This document shows, piece after piece, positions 1-6,870 of a stretch of 6,870 nt of DNA; within the stretch, counting starts at the first letter, position 1, and the number at the start of each line of letters is the position of its first letter. This DNA comes from a virus (lineage: Duplodnaviria; Heunggongvirae; Uroviricota; Caudoviricetes). The stretch spans positions 1 through 6,870 of IMG/VR virus record IMGVR_UViG_2681813268_000003. One strand, 5' to 3'. Below the pieces are notes generated by a model. The model had not been told where the DNA came from, ran no database searches, and worked only from the letters and a program-made list of their open reading frames with translations. Both the position numbers and the translations under genes were made by a program.

Positions 1-62
1 GGGTTACCCCCAAACGAATCGGAAAATCGATACTGGAAAAACTCTAACTCGGTGGCCAGTTT

Positions 63-565
63 TTGTTGACCACTTCAGTTACAAACGAGCGAGTAACAAA
101 AATACGCGAACTGAAACGAAAAGGTAACGCTGCCAGCGTTACACAAACGGATCAAAAAGCGTTACCAGAGGAAGAGGAAGAGGAAGAGGAAGAGGAAGAG
201 GAAGAGGAAGAGGAAGATCTAAATACTGATCTCCCCCTCGCCAAAAACGAGCGTCTAAAAAATTCGAGCCGGAGGCTATTGAGCTGCCCGATTGGTTGCC
301 GGAAACACTCTGGCATGAGTGGGTCCGGTTCAGACAGGCATTGCGAAAACCGATTCGAACGGAGCAGGGCGCTAACGGGGCGATACGGGAACTGGAAAAA
401 TTCCGTCAGCAGGGTTTTACACCTGAGCAGGTGATTCGACACAGCATCGCCAATGAATACCAGGGCCTGTTCGCGCCGAAAGGTGTTCGGCCTGAGACGT
501 TGCTCCGACAGGTTAACACCGTCTCGTTGCCGGACAGTGCGATCCCGCCAGGCTTCAGGGGGTAA
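63..565 (+). pseudogene. DnaT-like primosomal/replication protein, disrupted. The C-terminal domain (about 230..565, frame 2) is intact; the upstream part including the poly-Glu tract is in frame 3, and all three frames have stops before nt 127
   Basis: Frame-2 translation ends ...VNTVSLPDSAIPPGFRG, which matches my recollection of the E. coli DnaT C-terminus (...VNTVSEPDSQIPPGFRG). Gene sits immediately 5' of a DnaC-like gene (stop 563-565, next ATG 572), as in dnaT-dnaC. Frames 3 and 2 are joined by a 1-nt shift at the C5 run 233-237; adding one C gives a continuous ORF 63..565. Only TTG starts are available at 63/66. Confidence 0.5.
168..215 (+). repeat. (GAGGAA)x8 perfect hexanucleotide repeat encoding 16 consecutive Glu in frame 3
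   Basis: Direct reading of the sequence: 48 nt of uninterrupted GAG GAA codons. Confidence 0.95.
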
Positions 566-571
566 CGGACC

Positions 572-1318
572 ATGAAAAATATTGCGACAGGCGGCGTTCT
601 GGAACGCATCCGCCGACTGACCCCGCCACATGTAACCGCCCCATTCAGAACGGTAGCGGAGTGGCGCGAGTGGCAACTTGCTGAAGGCCAGAAACGTAGC
701 GAGGAGATCAACCGCCTGAATCGCCAGTTGCGGGTGGAAAAAATTCTGAATCGCTCAGGCATCCAGCCGTTGCACCGTAAATGCTCGTTTGCGAATTACC
801 AGGTGCAGAACGACGGCCAGCGATACGCGTTAAGCCAGGCGAAATCCATCGCCGATGAACTGATGACCGGGTGTACAAATTTTGCGTTCAGCGGAAAACC
901 TGGTACCGGGAAGAATCACTTAGCGGCAGCTATCGGGAATCGCCTGCTGAAAGACGGTCAGACAGTGATTGTGGTTACCGTGGCTGATGTTATGAGCGCC
1001 CTGCACGCCAGCTATGACGACGGGCAGTCAGGCGAAAAATTTTTGCGGGAGCTGTGCGAAGTGGATCTGCTGGTTCTTGATGAAATTGGCATTCAGCGCG
1101 AGACGAAAAACGAGCAGGTGGTGCTGCACCAGATTGTTGATCGCCGGACAGCGTCGATGCGCAGCGTGGGGATGCTGACAAACCTGAACTATGAGGTGAT
1201 GAAAACATTGCTCGGCGAGCGGGTGATGGATCGCATGGTCATGAACGGCGGGCGCTGGGTGAATTTTAACTGGGAGAGCTGGCGTCCGAATGTTAGCCAT
1301 TCGAGGGTTGTTAAGTAG
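572..1318 (+). CDS. DnaC-like replicative helicase loader (AAA+ ATPase)
   Basis: 248-aa ORF with Walker A FSGKPGTGKNHLAAAIG and Walker B DLLVLDEIG. Sequence closely resembles E. coli DnaC as I recall it (GKPGTGKNHLAAAI..., LLGERVMDRM...). Starts 7 nt after the DnaT-like stop. Confidence 0.9.
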   Translation: MKNIATGGVLERIRRLTPPHVTAPFRTVAEWREWQLAEGQKRSEEINRLNRQLRVEKILNRSGIQPLHRKCSFANYQVQNDGQRYALSQAKSIADELMTGCTNFAFSGKPGTGKNHLAAAIGNRLLKDGQTVIVVTVADVMSALHASYDDGQSGEKFLRELCEVDLLVLDEIGIQRETKNEQVVLHQIVDRRTASMRSVGMLTNLNYEVMKTLLGERVMDRMVMNGGRWVNFNWESWRPNVSHSRVVK

Positions 1319-1332
1319 TTTCAGGAGGATTT

Positions 1333-1755
1333 ATGGCGAAACCTTTTACTCCCGAACAGCGGGAAGAACTGAAGACGCGAATTGTGGAACTCGTGCATCA
1401 GGACGGTCGGGTCACGATTCGGCAGTTGTCAGATGAAACAGGTATCAGTCGTGCGTCTGTCGGTCGCTTATGCATAGAACTGGTCGCAAGTGGTGATGTA
1501 TATAATTCTGGCTACGGCTTATTCCCGTCTGAACAGGCTCGCAAGGACTGGCAAAGCGCCCGCAAAAAACTCTCGAGAGTAAAGGTGAGGAAACCGGTTG
1601 TTGTTGATCCGGACCTTATCTGGTCATTACCTGACGGAGAAATACGCCGCTACGACAGGCGCCTGAATATAATCTGTCGCGAGTGCCGGAAGAGCGAAGC
1701 TATGCAGCGTGTACTGGCTTTCTATCAGGGTAATTTTCAGGAGGCGATACTGTGA
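1333..1755 (+). CDS. Small putative DNA-binding protein with N-terminal winged-helix/HTH-like segment; function unknown
   Basis: 140-aa ORF with strong SD AGGAGG (1323-1328) before ATG 1333. N-terminus (...VTIRQLSDETGISRASVGRL...) looks like an HTH; basic C-terminus with CRECRK. No family confidently recognised. Confidence 0.7.
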   Translation: MAKPFTPEQREELKTRIVELVHQDGRVTIRQLSDETGISRASVGRLCIELVASGDVYNSGYGLFPSEQARKDWQSARKKLSRVKVRKPVVVDPDLIWSLPDGEIRRYDRRLNIICRECRKSEAMQRVLAFYQGNFQEAIL

Positions 1756-1812
1756 ATGAAATTAGCTATCAGGCTTCAATTACCGCTGGCATTCGCATCA
1801 AAGGAGAGGAGC

Positions 1813-2169
1813 ATGGAAATAAAACCAGAAGATGAGTTAAGCAATATTGTTTTATTTCCGGTAAAAGAGGATAACCCTCGTAATCAGGTTAATTTTCTTT
1901 ATGAGCCATCGGAAAGACCATATTGCCATCACGCCTCTGTACGGGTTGACGAAAAAGAGCGTCAGGTCCGCTGTAAAATCTGCGGTGCGGTTGTGGAGCC
2001 GTTTGACTGGATGCTCTCTGTGGCAAAAAGAGAAACCAGACTGGCAGATGATGTAAGGCTATTGCGCCAGGAGGAACAGGAAAGGCGGAGAAATATAGAA
2101 AAGCTGATACAGATTGAGCGTAACGCGAAAGCGCGGATACGCAGGGCGACAAAATCCAGAACTGAATAA
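1813..2169 (+). CDS. Zinc-ribbon-like protein with C-terminal basic coiled-coil; function unknown. Alternative start at ATG 1756
   Basis: ORF 1756..2169; internal ATG 1813 has a strong SD (AAGGAGAGGAG 1801-1811). Cys/His motif YCHH...CKICG followed by a charged helical tail (RLADDVRLLRQEEQERRRNIEKLIQIERNAKARIRR). Confidence 0.65.
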   Translation: MEIKPEDELSNIVLFPVKEDNPRNQVNFLYEPSERPYCHHASVRVDEKERQVRCKICGAVVEPFDWMLSVAKRETRLADDVRLLRQEEQERRRNIEKLIQIERNAKARIRRATKSRTE

Positions 2170-2255
2170 TTAAATTTAGCACTGTTAAAAATTTAATCCT
2201 TAACCGGAGGGATTTCTGCACCCTCAAATCATCAGGAGACCACCCGAAAGGGCGG
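1942..2255 (+). repeat. Copy A of a 314-bp near-exact direct repeat (zinc-ribbon gene 3' half plus downstream intergenic); partner at 4185..4498
   Basis: Base-by-base comparison: identical except 2242 a vs 4485 g. A further 13 bp (1928-1940) match 4166-4178 just before the N gap. Confidence 0.95.
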
Positions 2256-2316
2256 GGAGCAGTCACACATCTGTTTCCGATAGCCCCGTTCTAATGCTAC
2301 ACTCTTTGATATTTTT

Positions 2317-3003
2317 ATGACCCCAATAAACATATTTATGACAGTTGCTGATTTCAAACGGCCCAAATTGGAGCTCCCAAACGGGGCAAACAAACTACTA
2401 CTGCACTCTTGCTGTGCTCCATGTTCCGGTGAGGTGATGGAGGCGCTTCAGGCCTCGGGAATCGACTACACCATCTTTTTCTACAACCCGAACATTCATC
2501 CTCAGAAAGAGTATTTAATTCGTAAGGATGAGAATATTCGCTTTGCTGAACAACACGGCGTGCCGTTTATTGATGCTGATTACGACACAGACAACTGGTT
2601 TGAACGAGCCAAAGGAATGGAATGGGAGCCCGAACGAGGGATCCGTTGCACCATGTGTTTTGACATGCGTTTTGAGCGGACAGCGCTGTACGCCGCTGAA
2701 AATGGTTTCAGTGTGATCAGCAGTTCACTGGGCATTTCACGCTGGAAAAATATGCAGCAGGTTAACGACTGTGGGCGGCGAGCCGTCGCGCATTATCCGG
2801 GCATGGTGTACTGGGATTATAACTGGCGCAAGCAGGGCGGCTCGTCCCGTATGATTGAAATCAGCAAGCGCGAAAAATTCTATCAGCAGGAATATTGTGG
2901 CTGTGTGTATTCTCTGCGCGATACCAATCTACACCGCAAATCTCAGGGACGCCCTCTTATCAAAATTGGTCAACTCCACTACGGTAAAGAAGAGAAGGAG
3001 TGA
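2317..3003 (+). CDS. queH: QueH-like protein (DUF208 family, putative B12-independent epoxyqueuosine reductase)
   Basis: 228-aa ORF with N-proximal [11 protein letters not shown] motif and additional conserved Cys (CTMCFD, EYCGCVY), which I recognise as DUF208/QueH hallmarks. No obvious SD; alternative start ATG 2338. Confidence 0.7.
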
Positions 3004-3024
3004 TTTTATGGGGCACCTTTCTGA

Positions 3025-3054
3025 TTGATTTCATATTGGCGAGGTAAGTAGAAT
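3025..3054 (+). promoter_or_regulatory. Putative sigma70 promoter of hok/mok mRNA copy 1 (TTGATT -18- TAGAAT)
   Basis: -35-like TTGATT 3025-3030 and -10-like TAGAAT 3049-3054; predicted start near 3060, just before the tac-like element. Confidence 0.4.
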
Positions 3055-3057
3055 GAC

Positions 3058-3072
3058 TGCGGGTGCTTGAGG
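3058..3072 (+). promoter_or_regulatory. tac-like 5' element of hok mRNA copy 1 (TGCGGGTGCTTGAGG), complementary to the fbi-like 3' element at 3443..3458
   Basis: 15 bp pair with 3443-3458 (CCTCAACGCACCCGCA) with one bulged C. Same 5'/3' fold-back architecture as described for plasmid R1 hok mRNA. Copy 2 equivalents at 6400-6414 and 6779-6794. Confidence 0.55.
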
Positions 3073-3104
3073 CTATCTGCTTCAGGCATGAACACCAAAA
3101 GGCA

Positions 3105-3182
3105 GATAGAGAAAAGCCCCAGTTAACATTACGCGTCCGGCAAGACGCTTAACATTAATCTGAGGCCAATTTCATGCTTTGC
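3105..3182 (-). ncRNA. Putative Sok-like antisense RNA of hok locus 1 (extent approximate)
   Basis: Inferred by analogy to hok/sok. Minus strand has -35-like TTGCCT (complement of 3212-3217) and weak -10-like TAACCT (complement of 3189-3194) with 17-nt spacing, pointing transcription antisense across the mok start (3174). 3' end not defined. Confidence 0.25.
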
Positions 3183-3386
3183 ACATGTAGGTTAGCCTCT
3201 TACATGCCGAAAGGCAAGGAGAAGCAGGCTATGAAGCAGCAAAAGGCGATGTTAATCGCCCTGATCGTCATCTGTTTAACCGTCATAGTGACGGCACTGG
3301 TAACGAGGAAAGACCTCTGTGAGGTACGAATCCGAACCGGCCAGACGGAGGTCGCTGTCTTCGTAGACTACGAATCCAGGAAGTAA
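3174..3386 (+). CDS. mok: Mok-like regulatory ORF, in frame with and containing hok (70 aa)
   Basis: ATG 3174, same frame as hok. Same in-frame arrangement as I recall for E. coli MokC/HokC. Confidence 0.5.
   Translation: MLCTCRLASYMPKGKEKQAMKQQKAMLIALIVICLTVIVTALVTRKDLCEVRIRTGQTEVAVFVDYESRK
3231..3386 (+). CDS. hok: Hok/Gef-family type I toxin (51 aa, single TM helix)
   Basis: MKQQKAMLIALIVICLTVIVTALVTRKDLCEVRIRTGQTEVAVFVDYESRK is near-identical to recalled HokD/HokC sequences. SD AAGGAG 3215-3220 before ATG 3231. Confidence 0.9.
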   Translation: MKQQKAMLIALIVICLTVIVTALVTRKDLCEVRIRTGQTEVAVFVDYESRK

Positions 3387-3463
3387 GAGTGACCGGGCGG
3401 GGAGCTGATCCCATCCCCGCCCACCTCTGATGTGTCAGGCATCCTCAACGCACCCGCACTTAA

Positions 3464-3506
3464 CCCGCCCATCGCTGTGATCTCTCAGCGTTTCGGCGGG
3501 TTTTTT
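3464..3506 (+). terminator. Rho-independent terminator / 3' end of hok mRNA copy 1
   Basis: Two-tier hairpin: CCCGCC 3464-3469 pairs GGCGGG 3495-3500; inner CGCTG 3473-3477 pairs CAGCG 3486-3490; followed by T6 3501-3506. Confidence 0.7.
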
Positions 3507-3526
3507 GTTGTTTATTTCCGGTGAAT

Positions 3527-3554
3527 TTGATTCGCGCACCTTCGCAGATAGAAT
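3527..3554 (+). promoter_or_regulatory. Putative sigma70 promoter (TTGATT -16- TAGAAT) upstream of the 95-aa ORF
   Basis: TTGATT 3527-3532 and TAGAAT 3549-3554, located just after the hok1 terminator. Confidence 0.4.
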
Positions 3555-3635
3555 CGACTCACTTAAGTAGCGCGCAGGGAGAAGAGGGATGGACCCCGAA
3601 CAGGGGAGAGCTATTTATCTGGAAGGATTCTGAAG

Positions 3636-3923
3636 ATGAAAATCGAAGAATTGCGTGAAATTTTTAGTGAAAATGGCCTCTATGCTGTGCGCGTTGAGAA
3701 TGGAGCGATTGTCAGCCATTGCCGCATTAGATGTTTGCAATCTCAACAAAGGAAGAGCGGTGCTGTGTTATTTTATTTTTGTAATGGACTTCTGACGGAC
3801 GGTTTTATTTTGCGTGAGGACGAATTTGTCACATCATTACGGGTTTTGAAAGAGATTGGTTTTAAGGCTGGTTTTCTGCTTTTGCTGAAGAATAAACTCA
3901 TCTACAATCTTGAGCAGGATTGA
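3636..3923 (+). CDS. Hypothetical protein (95 aa)
   Basis: ORF with SD GGAAGGA 3621-3627, 8 nt before ATG 3636. No recognised motif. Confidence 0.55.
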   Translation: MKIEELREIFSENGLYAVRVENGAIVSHCRIRCLQSQQRKSGAVLFYFCNGLLTDGFILREDEFVTSLRVLKEIGFKAGFLLLLKNKLIYNLEQD

Positions 3924-3961
3924 ACTCCTGCTGTGTAACACCGTGCCACCGGAGAAAGCCG

Positions 3962-4178
3962 ATGGCACATATACAACTGGTCAAACAAACCTCTTCCGGA
4001 TTACTTCTCCCGGCGACGCCGGAGAGTTGCGATTTTCTGCATCAAATCAAAATAGGTGAGTGGATACACGCAGACTTTAAGCGTGTGTGTAACTACGCAT
4101 TCCACAAGCGTTTTTTCAAACTCCTGCAACTGGGTTTCGATTACTGGACTCCGGTCGGTGGGGCGATCACGCCTCTGT
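3962..4178 (+). CDS. Phage nin-region protein, 3'-truncated at the N gap (possibly DUF1367-like, tentative)
   Basis: ATG 3962 preceded by GGAGA 3951-3955. Translation MAHIQLVKQTSSGLLLPATPESCDFLHQIKIGEWIHADFKRVCNYAFHKRFFKLLQLGFDYWTPVGG... runs into the N run at 4179. Family assignment is from memory only. Confidence 0.5.
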
Positions 4179-4184
4179 NNNNNN
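4179..4184. other. Run of 6 N: assembly/scaffold gap of unknown true length
   Basis: Literal nnnnnn in the sequence; flanks correspond to positions 1940 and 1942 of the upstream repeat copy. Confidence 0.95.
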
Positions 4185-4412
4185 CGGGTTGACGAAAAAG
4201 AGCGTCAGGTCCGCTGTAAAATCTGCGGTGCGGTTGTGGAGCCGTTTGACTGGATGCTCTCTGTGGCAAAAAGAGAAACCAGACTGGCAGATGATGTAAG
4301 GCTATTGCGCCAGGAGGAACAGGAAAGGCGGAGAAATATAGAAAAGCTGATACAGATTGAGCGTAACGCGAAAGCGCGGATACGCAGGGCGACAAAATCC
4401 AGAACTGAATAA
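4185..4412 (+). CDS. 5'-truncated second copy of the zinc-ribbon/coiled-coil protein (3' 228 nt identical to 1942..2169)
   Basis: Frame-3 translation from the gap edge (RVDEKERQVRCKICGAVVEPFDWML...ATKSRTE) is identical to the C-terminus of the 1813..2169 product. Confidence 0.5.
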   Translation, partial: RVDEKERQVRCKICGAVVEPFDWMLSVAKRETRLADDVRLLRQEEQERRRNIEKLIQIERNAKARIRRATKSRTE

Positions 4413-4498
4413 TTAAATTTAGCACTGTTAAAAATTTAATCCTTAACCGGAGGGATTTCTGCACCCTCAAATCATCAGGAGACCGCCCGAAAGGGCGG
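4185..4498 (+). repeat. Copy B of the 314-bp direct repeat (partner 1942..2255)
   Basis: See copy A. Ends in a GAAA-loop hairpin (4482-4499) that is perfect here but mismatched in copy A. Confidence 0.95.
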
Positions 4499-4504
4499 TA
4501 ATGA

Positions 4505-4723
4505 ATGGTTACATTATTTAGAAAAAAATATCCGCGAAAGAGTAGAACAACAGAATTCCTGTTTCTCATTCTGTTTATCGTGTTGATGACACCGATATCC
4601 CCGCTAATTTTTGTCTGGATAATCGGAAAAATAATTGAGCCAGTTATTGAATTGTATAACGACGTGGTATGGGCGTCATTCAACACACTGCACAATAAAA
4701 TTAATCCGTATAAGGAAAGCTGA
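4505..4723 (+). CDS. Small hydrophobic (membrane) protein, 72 aa, AT-rich
   Basis: ORF with hydrophobic core FLFLILFIVLMTPISPLIFVWIIGKII. Stop 4721-4723 is 1 nt before the HNH start 4725. Markedly AT-rich compared with its neighbours. Weak SD. Confidence 0.4.
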   Translation: MVTLFRKKYPRKSRTTEFLFLILFIVLMTPISPLIFVWIIGKIIEPVIELYNDVVWASFNTLHNKINPYKES

Positions 4724-4724
4724 T

Positions 4725-5090
4725 ATGGCACTGACGAAAAAACAACGTGCAGAACTGCGCATGAAGTTCGGTGGTCGCTGCGCTTATTGCGGCTGCGAAC
4801 TTGGCGAAAAGTGGCATGCAGACCATGTAAAACCGGTCATTCGTTTTGATGGAAATATGCTTCACCAGGAACGTGACGATATATCCAACATGGTACCAGC
4901 ATGCCACCCATGCAATCTGCACAAGCATTGCAGTAGCCTGGAAGATTATCGACGAATTATCAGTGATGGTCGTCGTGAATTCCTTGCGTCCGGGAAAGGC
5001 AAAGCGCTGGTTCGTATGGGATTGGTTGAAATGAAATCTGACCCGGTTGTGTTCTGGTTTGAAAAATATCAAGAAGGGGCTACGGCATGA
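4725..5090 (+). CDS. HNH endonuclease-domain protein (121 aa)
   Basis: SD TAAGGAAAG before ATG 4725. HNH signature CAYCGCEL...WHADHVKPV...NMVPACHPCNLHKH. The tool ORF from 4635 has no RBS support. Confidence 0.85.
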   Translation: MALTKKQRAELRMKFGGRCAYCGCELGEKWHADHVKPVIRFDGNMLHQERDDISNMVPACHPCNLHKHCSSLEDYRRIISDGRREFLASGKGKALVRMGLVEMKSDPVVFWFEKYQEGATA

Positions 5091-5752
5091 CCACTATTAC
5101 CAAAGAGCGACTGCAATGGCTGGCTAACATTTCTGGCCGCGATGATATTGACGATATAGACGGCGGTGAAATTCGTGAACTGGCGCTTATCGCTCTGGCA
5201 TCACTGGAAGCAGAGCCTGTAGCGGAATGCATTGTTGAAGATGGGGGCATGTGTATTGACGGGTTCGGTGAGTATGTGGGTCACTCGCTGCCTGATGGAA
5301 TGCATGAGCTTTATGCTGCCCCGCGAATGCGACAACCTGATGGATGGAAAGCCGTAGCTGTAGCGTGGAAGGTGACGTTTACTCAAGTTGACCAGGAATC
5401 TAATACGTTCACTGCTATATATTTTGACAAAGCGGAAGTTGAGTGTTGGGTACGACTGCATAAAGCATGTGATTTTCGGGCAGATATAACACCGCTTTAC
5501 GCAGCGCCGGCAGTGCCGGTTGCAGTAAACGACGACATGGCTTACGCATTCCATCACGCACTGTCAGATTCATCGCTTGGCTCTGATGAAATCGAAGAAA
5601 TTAAAACCGGTTTGCGTGCTGCCTTTGCCAACGTCACTATCCAACCAGAGCCGATAGTGCCGGATGAAATCGGGCCAAACGATAGTAATACGTTTGATTA
5701 TGTTGATGGCTGGAACGCCTGCCGCGCTGCCATGCTTAAGGGAGATAAATAA
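5087..5752 (+). CDS. Hypothetical protein (221 aa), acidic N-terminus, two LYAAP-containing segments
   Basis: ATG 5087 overlaps HNH stop (ATGA 5087-5090). Coding-like composition. No recognised family. Confidence 0.7.
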   Translation: MTTITKERLQWLANISGRDDIDDIDGGEIRELALIALASLEAEPVAECIVEDGGMCIDGFGEYVGHSLPDGMHELYAAPRMRQPDGWKAVAVAWKVTFTQVDQESNTFTAIYFDKAEVECWVRLHKACDFRADITPLYAAPAVPVAVNDDMAYAFHHALSDSSLGSDEIEEIKTGLRAAFANVTIQPEPIVPDEIGPNDSNTFDYVDGWNACRAAMLKGDK

Positions 5753-6117
5753 TGATTAATCGAACCAAACTGGAGCACATTCTCGAATATGCCAGGCAGC
5801 AGAAATGTATTGGGCAACTTTGTAAAATTCCACCAGGAGATATGGTTGAAATCGTGGAAATGGCCATGCGTAAGGCTGGCAACTCTCCGGTAGCTCCGGC
5901 TGGCTGGATAAGCTGTAGTGATGCAGTTCCTGCTGAATATTGCGATGTGATTCTTCTCGATGATCTCGGGAATGTATTCCCCGGTTCCTGGGATAAGGTT
6001 TTTTGCCCCACTCGTGGCGGGAATAAGATGGCTTTTGTGGACAAAGACGGCGTTGAAGTAGAGAGCTCAACTCACTGGATGCCGCTACCGGAACCACCGC
6101 AGGAGGTGAATCAATGA
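5752..6117 (+). CDS. DUF551-like phage protein (121 aa)
   Basis: ATG 5752 overlaps previous stop (TAATG). C-terminal ...THWMPLPEPPQE and WISCSDAVPAEY... resemble the DUF551 pattern found in lambdoid nin regions (from memory). Confidence 0.7.
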   Translation: MINRTKLEHILEYARQQKCIGQLCKIPPGDMVEIVEMAMRKAGNSPVAPAGWISCSDAVPAEYCDVILLDDLGNVFPGSWDKVFCPTRGGNKMAFVDKDGVEVESSTHWMPLPEPPQEVNQ

Positions 6118-6197
6118 CCTGGCCTGAGGCATTCACCACGGTAGGAATTGCGATGGCGGTGGCGCTGGTGGTGTATTCGATTTGCCGTTGGGGTTAA
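6114..6197 (+). CDS. Putative 27-aa hydrophobic micropeptide (MTWPEAFTTVGIAMAVALVVYSICRWG)
   Basis: Below the ORF-track length cutoff. ATG 6114 overlaps DUF551 stop (ATGA), strong SD AGGAGG 6101-6106 at 7-nt spacing, stops 7 nt before a strong terminator. Confidence 0.4.
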   Translation: MTWPEAFTTVGIAMAVALVVYSICRWG

Positions 6198-6207
6198 CAA
6201 ACAAAAA

Positions 6208-6233
6208 CCCCGGATTGATGGTCCGGGGTTTTT
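6208..6233 (+). terminator. Rho-independent terminator closing the HNH-containing operon
   Basis: CCCCGGA 6208-6214 pairs TCCGGGG 6222-6228, 7-nt loop, then T5 6229-6233. Confidence 0.75.
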
Positions 6234-6445
6234 GAAGGAAACAAAACAGAAACAGCAATTGCCGTTACCTGTTGTTACCATGGCAAGTAAACGTATCTCA
6301 GGCGAGCGCATTGCGCCGTTCTGACGCAGATAAACTAGCCTGGATAGATGGTGCTGGCAATAAAAAATAGCGTTTTCTTATCGGTGTCGGTAAGATTGCT
6401 GCGGGTGCTTGAGGCTGTCTGCCTCGGGTATGTCACTGTAAGGCA

Positions 6446-6523
6446 GACAGAGAAAAGCCCCAGTTAACATTACGCGTCCTGCAAGACGCTTAACATTAAT
6501 CTGAGGCCCAATCTATGTCTCAC
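6446..6523 (-). ncRNA. Putative Sok-like antisense RNA of hok locus 2 (extent approximate)
   Basis: By analogy only; the same minus-strand hexamers as locus 1 are conserved (complement of AGGCAA and AGGTTA). Confidence 0.2.
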
Positions 6524-6727
6524 AAATGTAGGTTAGCCTCTTACGTGCCGAAAGGCAAGGAGAAGCAGGCTATGAAGCAGCAAAAGGCGATGTTAATCGC
6601 CCTGATCGTCATCTGTTTAACCGTCATTGTGACGGCACTGGTAACGAGGAAAGACCTCTGCGAGGTACGAATCCGAATCGGCCAGACGGAGGTCGCTGTT
6701 TTCGTAGACTACGAATCTAGAGAGTAA
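6515..6727 (+). CDS. mok: Mok-like regulatory ORF, in frame with and containing hok copy 2 (70 aa)
   Basis: ATG 6515, same architecture as locus 1. N-terminus differs (MSHKCRLASYV vs MLCTCRLASYM). Confidence 0.5.
   Translation: MSHKCRLASYVPKGKEKQAMKQQKAMLIALIVICLTVIVTALVTRKDLCEVRIRIGQTEVAVFVDYESRE
6572..6727 (+). CDS. hok: Hok/Gef-family type I toxin, second paralog (51 aa)
   Basis: MKQQKAMLIALIVICLTVIVTALVTRKDLCEVRIRIGQTEVAVFVDYESRE. Differs from copy 1 at T35I and the C-terminal residue. SD AAGGAG before ATG 6572. Confidence 0.9.
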   Translation: MKQQKAMLIALIVICLTVIVTALVTRKDLCEVRIRIGQTEVAVFVDYESRE

Positions 6728-6799
6728 GAGTGACCAGGCGGGAGAGTAATCTCCCGCCACCTTTGATGTGTCAGGCATCCTCAACGCACCCGCACTTAA

Positions 6800-6819
6800 C
6801 CCGTTTCGGCGGTTTTTTT
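6800..6819 (+). terminator. Degenerate terminator of hok copy 2 (T7 tract with minimal stem)
   Basis: Relative to copy 1, about 25 nt of the hairpin are missing; CCG/CGG with a 3-nt loop remains, followed by T7 6813-6819. Confidence 0.3.
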
Positions 6820-6870
6820 GGTAATGACTCCAACTTATTGATAGTGTTTTATGTTCAGATAATGCCCGAT

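Follow-up and report, generated by a model that had tools for sequence, protein, structure and literature searches.

INTRODUCTION

The subject of this work is a 6,870-nucleotide (nt) stretch of prophage DNA, called the window from here on (IMG/VR record IMGVR_UViG_2681813268_000003, positions 1 to 6,870), in which two gene modules stand one after the other, each preceded by a copy of the 3′ end of the same zinc-ribbon gene, with a run of six Ns directly before the second copy. The closest described systems are the moron mosaics of Rac and lambdoid prophages. There, a backbone of ydaV, DUF977, and zinc-ribbon genes and a joint that ends in a hairpin are followed either by QueH, hok, and rem (the type A module) or by DUF4014, HNH, a gene for a 221-amino-acid (aa) protein, DUF551, and hok (the type B module), and either module leads on to DUF1367, DUF1364 (YbcO), and DUF1133. 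The window shares these elements, but natural alternatives swap at gene boundaries, whereas the window contains both modules, connected through a junction that truncates two genes.

Prophage decay mediated by insertion sequences (IS) in Shigella offers a second comparison. Genomes in Shigella populations have roughly 200-290 IS copies each (PMC7373316), and a small scaffold bounded by IS is therefore expected of a short-read assembly. The window ends in an IS3-family element on the left and in IS1 on the right, and its relatives (comparison loci, designated by L numbers) include some with IS600 in DUF1367, with IS600 in the zinc-ribbon gene (L008), or with IS1 inside the type B zinc-ribbon gene, but no IS sequence is visible at the window junction. 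With microhomology-mediated illegitimate recombination, the window has in common a 10-nt identical string at the crossover of two otherwise unrelated genes, although the junction is without support outside this record and an unclosed gap lies at a distance of 3 nt, where the two copies differ.

Assembly tools can also create such arrangements. In GapFiller, an extension grows by single bases at an overlap of 29 nt and halts where the base is ambiguous (ratio 0.7); two extensions are merged if their overlap reaches n ≥ 10 nt, and Ns are left otherwise (PMC3446322). The authors of a pipeline combining Velvet, SSPACE, and GapFiller state that greedy tools can cause false joins (PMC5320598). The window resembles a false join of the SSPACE/GapFiller type in having a short N run in a small IS-bounded scaffold, gap edges that coincide with a difference between repeat copies, a duplicated repeat copy as if filled from reads, and a join at the minimum overlap of the tool (10 nt). 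Here, we present evidence that the window is very probably a product of scaffolding and gap filling, a false join of two Shigella prophage pieces.

RESULTS

The repeat, the 13-mer, and the N run

The window is the entire record CXEW01000203.1 (6,870 nt) of the draft assembly GCA_001260755.1, a scaffolded short-read draft with an assembly gap at the junction (4179-4184), and both of its ends are IS termini. Its proteins are annotated in public sources as Shigella, chiefly S. sonnei, and the window is one small scaffold from the short-read draft of an isolate of Shigella, most likely S. sonnei. A literature search on the accession returned nothing relevant.

Self-comparison of the window confirmed what a sequence-only reading had described as a 314-bp near-identical repeat, with positions 1942-2255 and 4185-4498 (both on the plus strand) differing at a single base (2242 A versus 4485 G) and matching at 300/300 positions over 1942-2241 and 4185-4484. 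The first copy consists of the zinc-ribbon 3′ end and an intergenic joint ending in a hairpin, and the second consists of the 3′ 228 nt of the type B zinc-ribbon gene and the joint, the 5′ 129 nt of the gene being missing. The 13-bp match claimed in front of the repeat is also present: the 13-mer ATCACGCCTCTGT occurs exactly twice in the window, at 1928-1940 and 4166-4178 (plus strand), against an expectation of 0.00 in 200 shuffles. Similarity between the copies stops directly left of this 13-mer and right of 2255/4498. A chance origin of the repeat was rejected.

Between the 13-mer and CGGGTTGACG, where the repeat resumes, copy A has one base (1941, A) and copy B has six Ns (4179-4184), the sole N run in the window, so the observation that the Ns stand in place of a single base of copy A also holds. 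The zinc-ribbon copies of type A and type B differ at 1848, 1873, 1878, 1905, and 1941, are identical from 1942 to 2241, differ again at 2242, and are fully divergent from 2256. Position 1941 is an A in type A loci and a C in 11/11 type B loci shown (10 with the 221-aa protein, plus L003), so that the N run occupies the site of an A/C difference between the copies. The 314-nt repeat is real and reflects an exact 300-nt stretch common to two resident prophages.

The conserved joint is closed by a GC-rich hairpin with a GAAA loop (2239-2255 and 4482-4498). The stem is fully paired in copy B (z = -4.1, 66-nt context), and one of its pairs is lost in copy A to the A at 2242 (z = -0.3). Directly 3′ of this hairpin, which is not followed by a T run, the modules diverge.

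Upstream of the gap, the open reading frame (ORF) at 3962-4178 covers about residues 1-71 of the 198-position DUF1367 profile (Pfam, E = 1.9e-32) and is therefore a truncated gene. The type A DUF1367 fragment proper (3962-4175, plus strand, about 71 of 199 codons) ends with the last native base of the left contig, 4175. The string ATCACGCCTC (10 nt) is common to DUF1367 and the zinc-ribbon gene, has mismatches on both sides, and is the only string that they share. Because DUF1367 diverges after these 10 nt in 14/14 comparison loci, only ATCACGCCTC is native to DUF1367, and the TGT that completes the 13-mer at 4166-4178 comes from the zinc-ribbon gene; the 13-mer is thus a chimeric joint. The junction cuts DUF1367 at about codon 72 of 199 and fuses it to a zinc-ribbon gene without its first 43 codons, out of frame whether the gap is taken as 6 nt or as 1 nt. 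The proposal that the upstream gene runs into the zinc-ribbon copy in a different frame was therefore correct as to frame, but no more than 10 of the 13 matching nt belong to that gene. This last point, the position of the N run on a copy difference, and the nature of the window as an entire IS-bounded draft scaffold all go beyond the sequence-only reading.

Native sequence on both sides of the gap

Each side of the gap continues otherwise in finished relatives (14/14 loci on the left and 11/11 on the right). Past 4175, DUF1367 continues with ATCACGCCTCgcg or ATCACGCCTCgag (gcgaac / gagaac) in 14/14 comparison loci, so that the native reading left of the gap is ...GGGGCGATCACGCCTCgcgaacg or ...gagaacg in all of them, and the native type A stretch written through the breakpoint is ...GATCACGCCTCGCGAACGAAAACTGGTGTCC. 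The DUF1367 allele of the window (Cys43) continues natively in the S. sonnei proteins P0001 and P0067, and in L009, L010, and L013 the window-type gene runs 94 nt beyond 4175 to an IS600 insertion.

On the right, the sequence preceding CGGGTTGACG in 10/10 complete type B loci consists of the end of an IS1, 113 nt from the 5′ part of the zinc-ribbon gene, and a C, never of DUF1367, and L003 has the same order with an IS3-like element instead of IS1. The native type B contexts, from IS1 into the zinc-ribbon gene, read ...GGCAGCATCACCAAGATGAGTTAAGCAATATCG and ...CACGCCTCTGTCCGGGTTGACG.

A type A zinc-ribbon gene interrupted by IS600 is found in L008 (3039-4306, CP032523.1), where the target duplication is GTA, corresponding to 1939-1941, and includes the very base (1941) replaced by the N run in the window.

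The two halves belong to two prophages

Type A loci have the architecture ydaV-DUF977-zinc ribbon-QueH-hokD-rem-DUF1367 (full)-DUF1364-DUF1133 (L002, L004, and L007-L011), and type B loci have (own ydaV-DUF977)-IS-zinc ribbon-DUF4014-HNH-221 aa-DUF551-hok-(IS1)-hypothetical gene-DUF1367-DUF1364-DUF1133 (L003 and L016-L025). The left half of the window (78-4175) is 99.95% identical to L010, with two mismatches, and 99.8% identical to L011, and the right half (4185-6870) is identical at 2686/2686 positions in six complete Shigella chromosomes, the hok-IS1 junction included. The replication module of the type B prophage, with its own ydaV and DUF977, is only 90.6% identical to that of the window, and type A and type B are therefore distinct prophages. 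The two halves of the window thus come from two prophages, both Rac-like, and QueH with hok and DUF4014/HNH with hok are alternative modules found 3′ of the same zinc-ribbon gene, in two different prophages of complete genomes. Of the two explanations offered earlier, the evidence favors a scaffold that joins contigs of two related prophages.

Escherichia coli FDAARGOS_944 has both halves, at 4,295,559-4,299,636 (99.1%) and 5,015,872-5,018,506 (99.8%), in separate prophages that lie 716 kb apart in direct orientation. No complete S. sonnei chromosome was found to hold both loci, the accession lists being without overlap, and FDAARGOS_944 is the only genome found with both. The 221-aa type B protein occurs in 2,489 blocks on contigs of 2-5 kb compared with 60 on contigs of 5-10 kb, and the usual assembly product is the type B segment by itself, bounded by its two IS1 copies.

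Both mismatches to L010 (1848 and 1873) are in the 5′ part of the zinc-ribbon gene, where L010 carries type B alleles, which suggests that, in some lineages, gene conversion may have acted between the copies of the two prophages.

The junction in other sequence collections

A continuous junction would read ...GGGGCGATCACGCCTCTGT[A/C]CGGGTTGACG..., an example of a junction 31-mer being GGTCGGTGGGGCGATCACGCCTCTGTCCGGG. A place covering both sides of it was found in 0 of 5,426 complete E. coli genomes, and no record in the phage collection had both sides. The junction 22-mer GGTGGGGCGATCACGCCTCTGT was not matched exactly in any of three contig collections (genome, viral, and metagenome). A hypothetical protein from a clean junction had no relative spanning it among 5.8 billion clusters, the best coverage (65%) being the DUF1367 part alone, and the 76-aa X-containing protein of the record had no exact entry in the protein cluster table, though it is present in the contig index, with CXEW01000203.1 as its one record. 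In all 119 IMG/VR contigs that contain a zinc-ribbon 3′ 31-mer, the upstream sequence is the native zinc-ribbon 5′ sequence.

The chimeric-protein query did find other fusions to the zinc-ribbon 3′ part, with breakpoints within the equivalents of 1937-1943. In one, the partner is the chromosomal rspB gene (rspB::Zn), seen in three independent sources, an NCBI assembly, a Logan contig, and a metagenome scaffold (L026-L028; 6184, 6184, and 293), and in the other it is a ydaT variant (ydaT::Zn), seen in one Logan contig (L029; 1401). A general mosaic boundary or hot spot at 1941/1942, which these breakpoints and the IS600 insertion of L008 had suggested, was rejected, as the query was biased to a span of ~50 nt and the unbiased set of 119 IMG/VR contigs was native throughout; a local fragile site at zinc-ribbon 1937-1943 is likewise without support in that unbiased sample.

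There is no IS sequence at 4166-4185. An IS terminus as the source of the TGT was also rejected, as IS600 ends begin with TGAGGT and IS1 ends with GGTAATG or GGTGATG, three bases having no power for other IS elements.

Stall points in a k-mer model

Gap filling was modeled with a k-mer successor table built from one type A locus (L010) and one type B locus (L020), using greedy single-base extension. Extension that started in type B-specific sequence and went leftward (overlaps of 15-40 nt) stalled with the first filled base at 4185, and rightward extension inside the native 5′ sequence of the zinc-ribbon gene (overlaps of 29-35 nt) stalled after ...CTCTGT. Both stalls are due to the A/C ambiguity at 1941, and together they reproduce both edges of the N run. 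The chimeric context of DUF1367 and the 13-mer had no successor at overlaps ≥15 nt, and the left-hand stall therefore cannot have arisen on the DUF1367 flank. The string shared by DUF1367 and the zinc-ribbon gene has the length of the default merge threshold of GapFiller, 10 nt.

Other features of the window

All genes described here are on the plus strand. At the left scaffold end, the terminal 77 nt of an IS3-family element (1-77) match element ends in L006, L023, and L025; positions 1-65 (read with 35 nt upstream of the matches) and 31-77 (exact) are the end of an element whose product is a 389-aa HTH_Tnp_1/rve protein. Homology to the type A prophage begins at 78 with the 3′ part of a ydaU-like replication-initiator gene (78-565), truncated by the IS; in type A prophages, the gene aligned with it lies upstream of ydaV. 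The site at which the IS interrupts ydaU was not seen in L010. At 167-217 this gene contains a perfect hexanucleotide repeat, (GAGGAA)8.5 or AGAGGA x 8.5, that encodes a run of Glu, and alignments of the left half to L011 and L009 need one gap in each.

Next come ydaV (572-1318), encoding a DnaC/IstB-like ATPase (Pfam IstB_IS21, 1.1e-19, and Bac_DnaA; annotated as ydaV in L002 and L004), a gene for a DUF977 winged-helix protein (1333-1755; Pfam DUF977, 1.1e-33), and the complete zinc-ribbon gene, copy A (1813-2169; 118 aa as called). The match of the latter to Zn_Ribbon_TF is weak, below the Pfam cut-off; its ORF is open from 1756, and it is a 357-nt hypothetical coding sequence in complete genomes. 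The type A module then comprises QueH, an epoxyqueuosine reductase (2338-3003; Pfam QueH, 1.9e-65), hok/sok locus 1 (3061-3386), and rem (3636-3923; 95 aa, Pfam Rem on an identical product), which is followed by the DUF1367 fragment.

Right of the second repeat copy, the type B module (4505-6117) is 100% identical in six complete chromosomes and comprises DUF4014 (4505-4723), an HNH endonuclease (4725-5090), the 221-aa protein (5087-5752), and DUF551 (5752-6117), all assigned to Pfam families except the 221-aa protein, which has none. That protein occurs on >1000 contigs, and the label valyl-tRNA synthetase given to it in some sources looks like an annotation error. Next is hok/sok locus 2 (6403-6727), and the right scaffold end is the terminal 51 nt of an IS1 (6820-6870), which aligns with the beginning of the IS1 copy (InsA/InsB products) found after hok in L016-L025; the end of the window also matches IS1 ends in L096.

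Both hok/sok loci have the makeup of a type I toxin-antitoxin system, that is, a Hok/Gef ORF and an overlapping sok-family RNA region (Rfam RF01794; HOK_GEF product). In locus 1 the RNA lies at 3061-3236 (117 bits) and hok at 3231-3386, and in locus 2 the RNA lies at 6403-6577 (118 bits) and hok at 6572-6727. The loci are 93% identical to each other and belong to different prophages in finished genomes.

DISCUSSION

Native sequence continues differently on both sides of the gap in finished relatives, the junction is absent from the collections searched, and the edges of the gap fall on predicted stall points. The left piece (78-4175) is the type A prophage, from the truncated ydaU through ydaV, DUF977, zinc ribbon, QueH, hok, and rem to DUF1367, and the right piece (4185-6819) is the IS1-bounded type B segment, from the zinc ribbon through DUF4014, HNH, the 221-aa protein, and DUF551 to hok. 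On our reading, the two are not adjacent in the chromosome. A greedy gap filler, starting from the DUF4014 contig and working leftward, would have crossed the shared 300 nt and stalled at the A/C difference at 1941, and extension from the native zinc-ribbon 5′ side would have stalled at the same base, leaving ...CTCTGT NNNNNN CGGG.... Up to this point the scaffold would have been a true type B context with one unresolved base. A merge accepting 10-nt overlaps could then have attached the DUF1367 contig at ATCACGCCTC, replacing IS1 and 100 nt of zinc-ribbon 5′ sequence.

Several points weigh against a false join. The identity of the software and the order of its steps are what we infer, the pipeline being read only from the type of record and its short N runs. 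A false join would require read pairs linking the DUF1367 and DUF4014 contigs, ≥5 of them for scaffolders of the SSPACE type. A 29-nt overlap cannot add TGT to the DUF1367 flank, so that an extra merge or trim step would be needed. In the k-mer model, extension of DUF1367 should stall at the equivalent of 4183 and not at 4175; the left contig end does equal the last A/B difference in DUF1367 (4135) plus 40, as it would in a k = 41 unitig, a weak indication. The evidence against junction-spanning reads is indirect, coming from sequence comparison and the k-mer model, the 10-nt microhomology also fits real illegitimate recombination, and prophage rearrangements do occur in Shigella genomes.

A record from a similarly named draft, CXIN01000012.1 (L013, 6634-7772), shows how such gaps can behave. 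Its DUF1367 region, the same as here, is followed by 1,128 nt of IS600, 11 Ns, and then the ydaT/ydaU of a second prophage, whereas complete genomes with this IS600 insertion continue instead into an integrase remnant and modC. The 11 Ns hide at least 137 nt of IS600, and short N runs in such records therefore neither measure the size of a gap nor guarantee adjacency. The left edge of that gap lies exactly 10 nt before a site that is variable among IS600 copies, and 10 nt is the default edge trim of GapFiller.

An actual recombination event is the strongest competitor of a false join, and we consider it improbable. Here, RecA-independent, illegitimate recombination at the 10-nt microhomology would have fused two resident Rac-like prophages, type A within DUF1367 and type B within the zinc-ribbon gene, and the six Ns would hide one unresolved base. 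If true, the window would be a composite element that has the QueH-hok-rem and DUF4014-HNH-DUF551-hok cassettes, and with them two hok/sok loci, in tandem, as well as a chimeric DUF1367::zinc-ribbon ORF, and it would retain a full set of late genes provided that the type B DUF1367 lies downstream. The bases left of the Ns read as expected from such an event, native DUF1367 up to ATCACGCCTC and then the zinc-ribbon TGT; a scaffolder needs linking read pairs, for which a false join provides no account; and other real fusions to the same zinc-ribbon part exist (rspB::Zn and ydaT::Zn). However, the unique context of a real junction would let an overlap extension of ≥15 nt pass the A/C position and close the gap, and yet the gap persists there, 3 nt from the crossover. 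The junction would also lie, by chance, only 13 nt from the repeat boundary, where failure of an assembler is expected. It was not found in the complete genomes, contig collections, or protein clusters searched, and the chromosomes that are 100% and 99.95% identical to the halves continue natively on both sides. Moreover, with the loci 716 kb apart in direct orientation, as in FDAARGOS_944, an exchange between them would delete or duplicate hundreds of kilobases.

Less probable still, and to our minds very unlikely, is that the order and orientation are correct and that the Ns stand for kilobases of IS DNA (for example, DUF1367′-IS600-IS1-zinc ribbon) brought in by an IS-mediated rearrangement. 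Several Shigella chromosomes do have IS600 in the type A DUF1367, 94 nt beyond 4175, IS600-IS1 precedes the type B segment, the left neighbor of that IS600 varies among genomes, a viral contig (L096) has the type A early region connected with the type B segment via IS1, and N-run length is not true gap size in such assemblies, as L013 illustrates. Short-insert pairs, however, cannot span about 2.3 kb of IS DNA, and a chain through IS contigs would leave IS sequence behind. The flanks do not fit either: the left one ends 94 nt before the IS600 site with a TGT that matches neither an IS600 nor an IS1 terminus, and the right one begins at the A/C position and not at the IS1 boundary 113 nt upstream. 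The contig in question, L096 (5586-13493, IMGVR_UViG_2690316346_000006), has three zinc-ribbon 3′ copies with IS1 ends on both sides and no Ns, and its type A early region is cut by IS1 at the window equivalent of 2142, with the type B segment directly after; either a real fusion mediated by IS1 or a further product of assembly could account for this arrangement.

The earlier suggestion of two modules placed naturally in tandem after the same conserved joint is not supported, as the second copy of the joint follows a cut DUF1367 with no intact gene boundary, the junction truncates both DUF1367 and the zinc-ribbon gene out of frame, and the same arrangement was seen in 0 independent genomes, contigs, or proteins among those searched.

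The chief value of the probable false join recognized here is as a data-quality flag. Taken literally, the record describes a prophage in which the joint is duplicated, two moron modules stand in tandem, and an ORF of 76 aa contains X, and it would mislead prophage-boundary calls, pan-genome counts, and studies of mosaicism or of hok/sok copy number. It also illustrates how a chimeric scaffold can arise in IS-rich Shigella drafts from an exact repeat with single-base differences at its ends and a chance identity of 10 nt. The underlying biology is the familiar mosaicism of Rac-like prophages, with alternative cassettes after a conserved zinc-ribbon gene, combined with the heavy IS traffic of Shigella.

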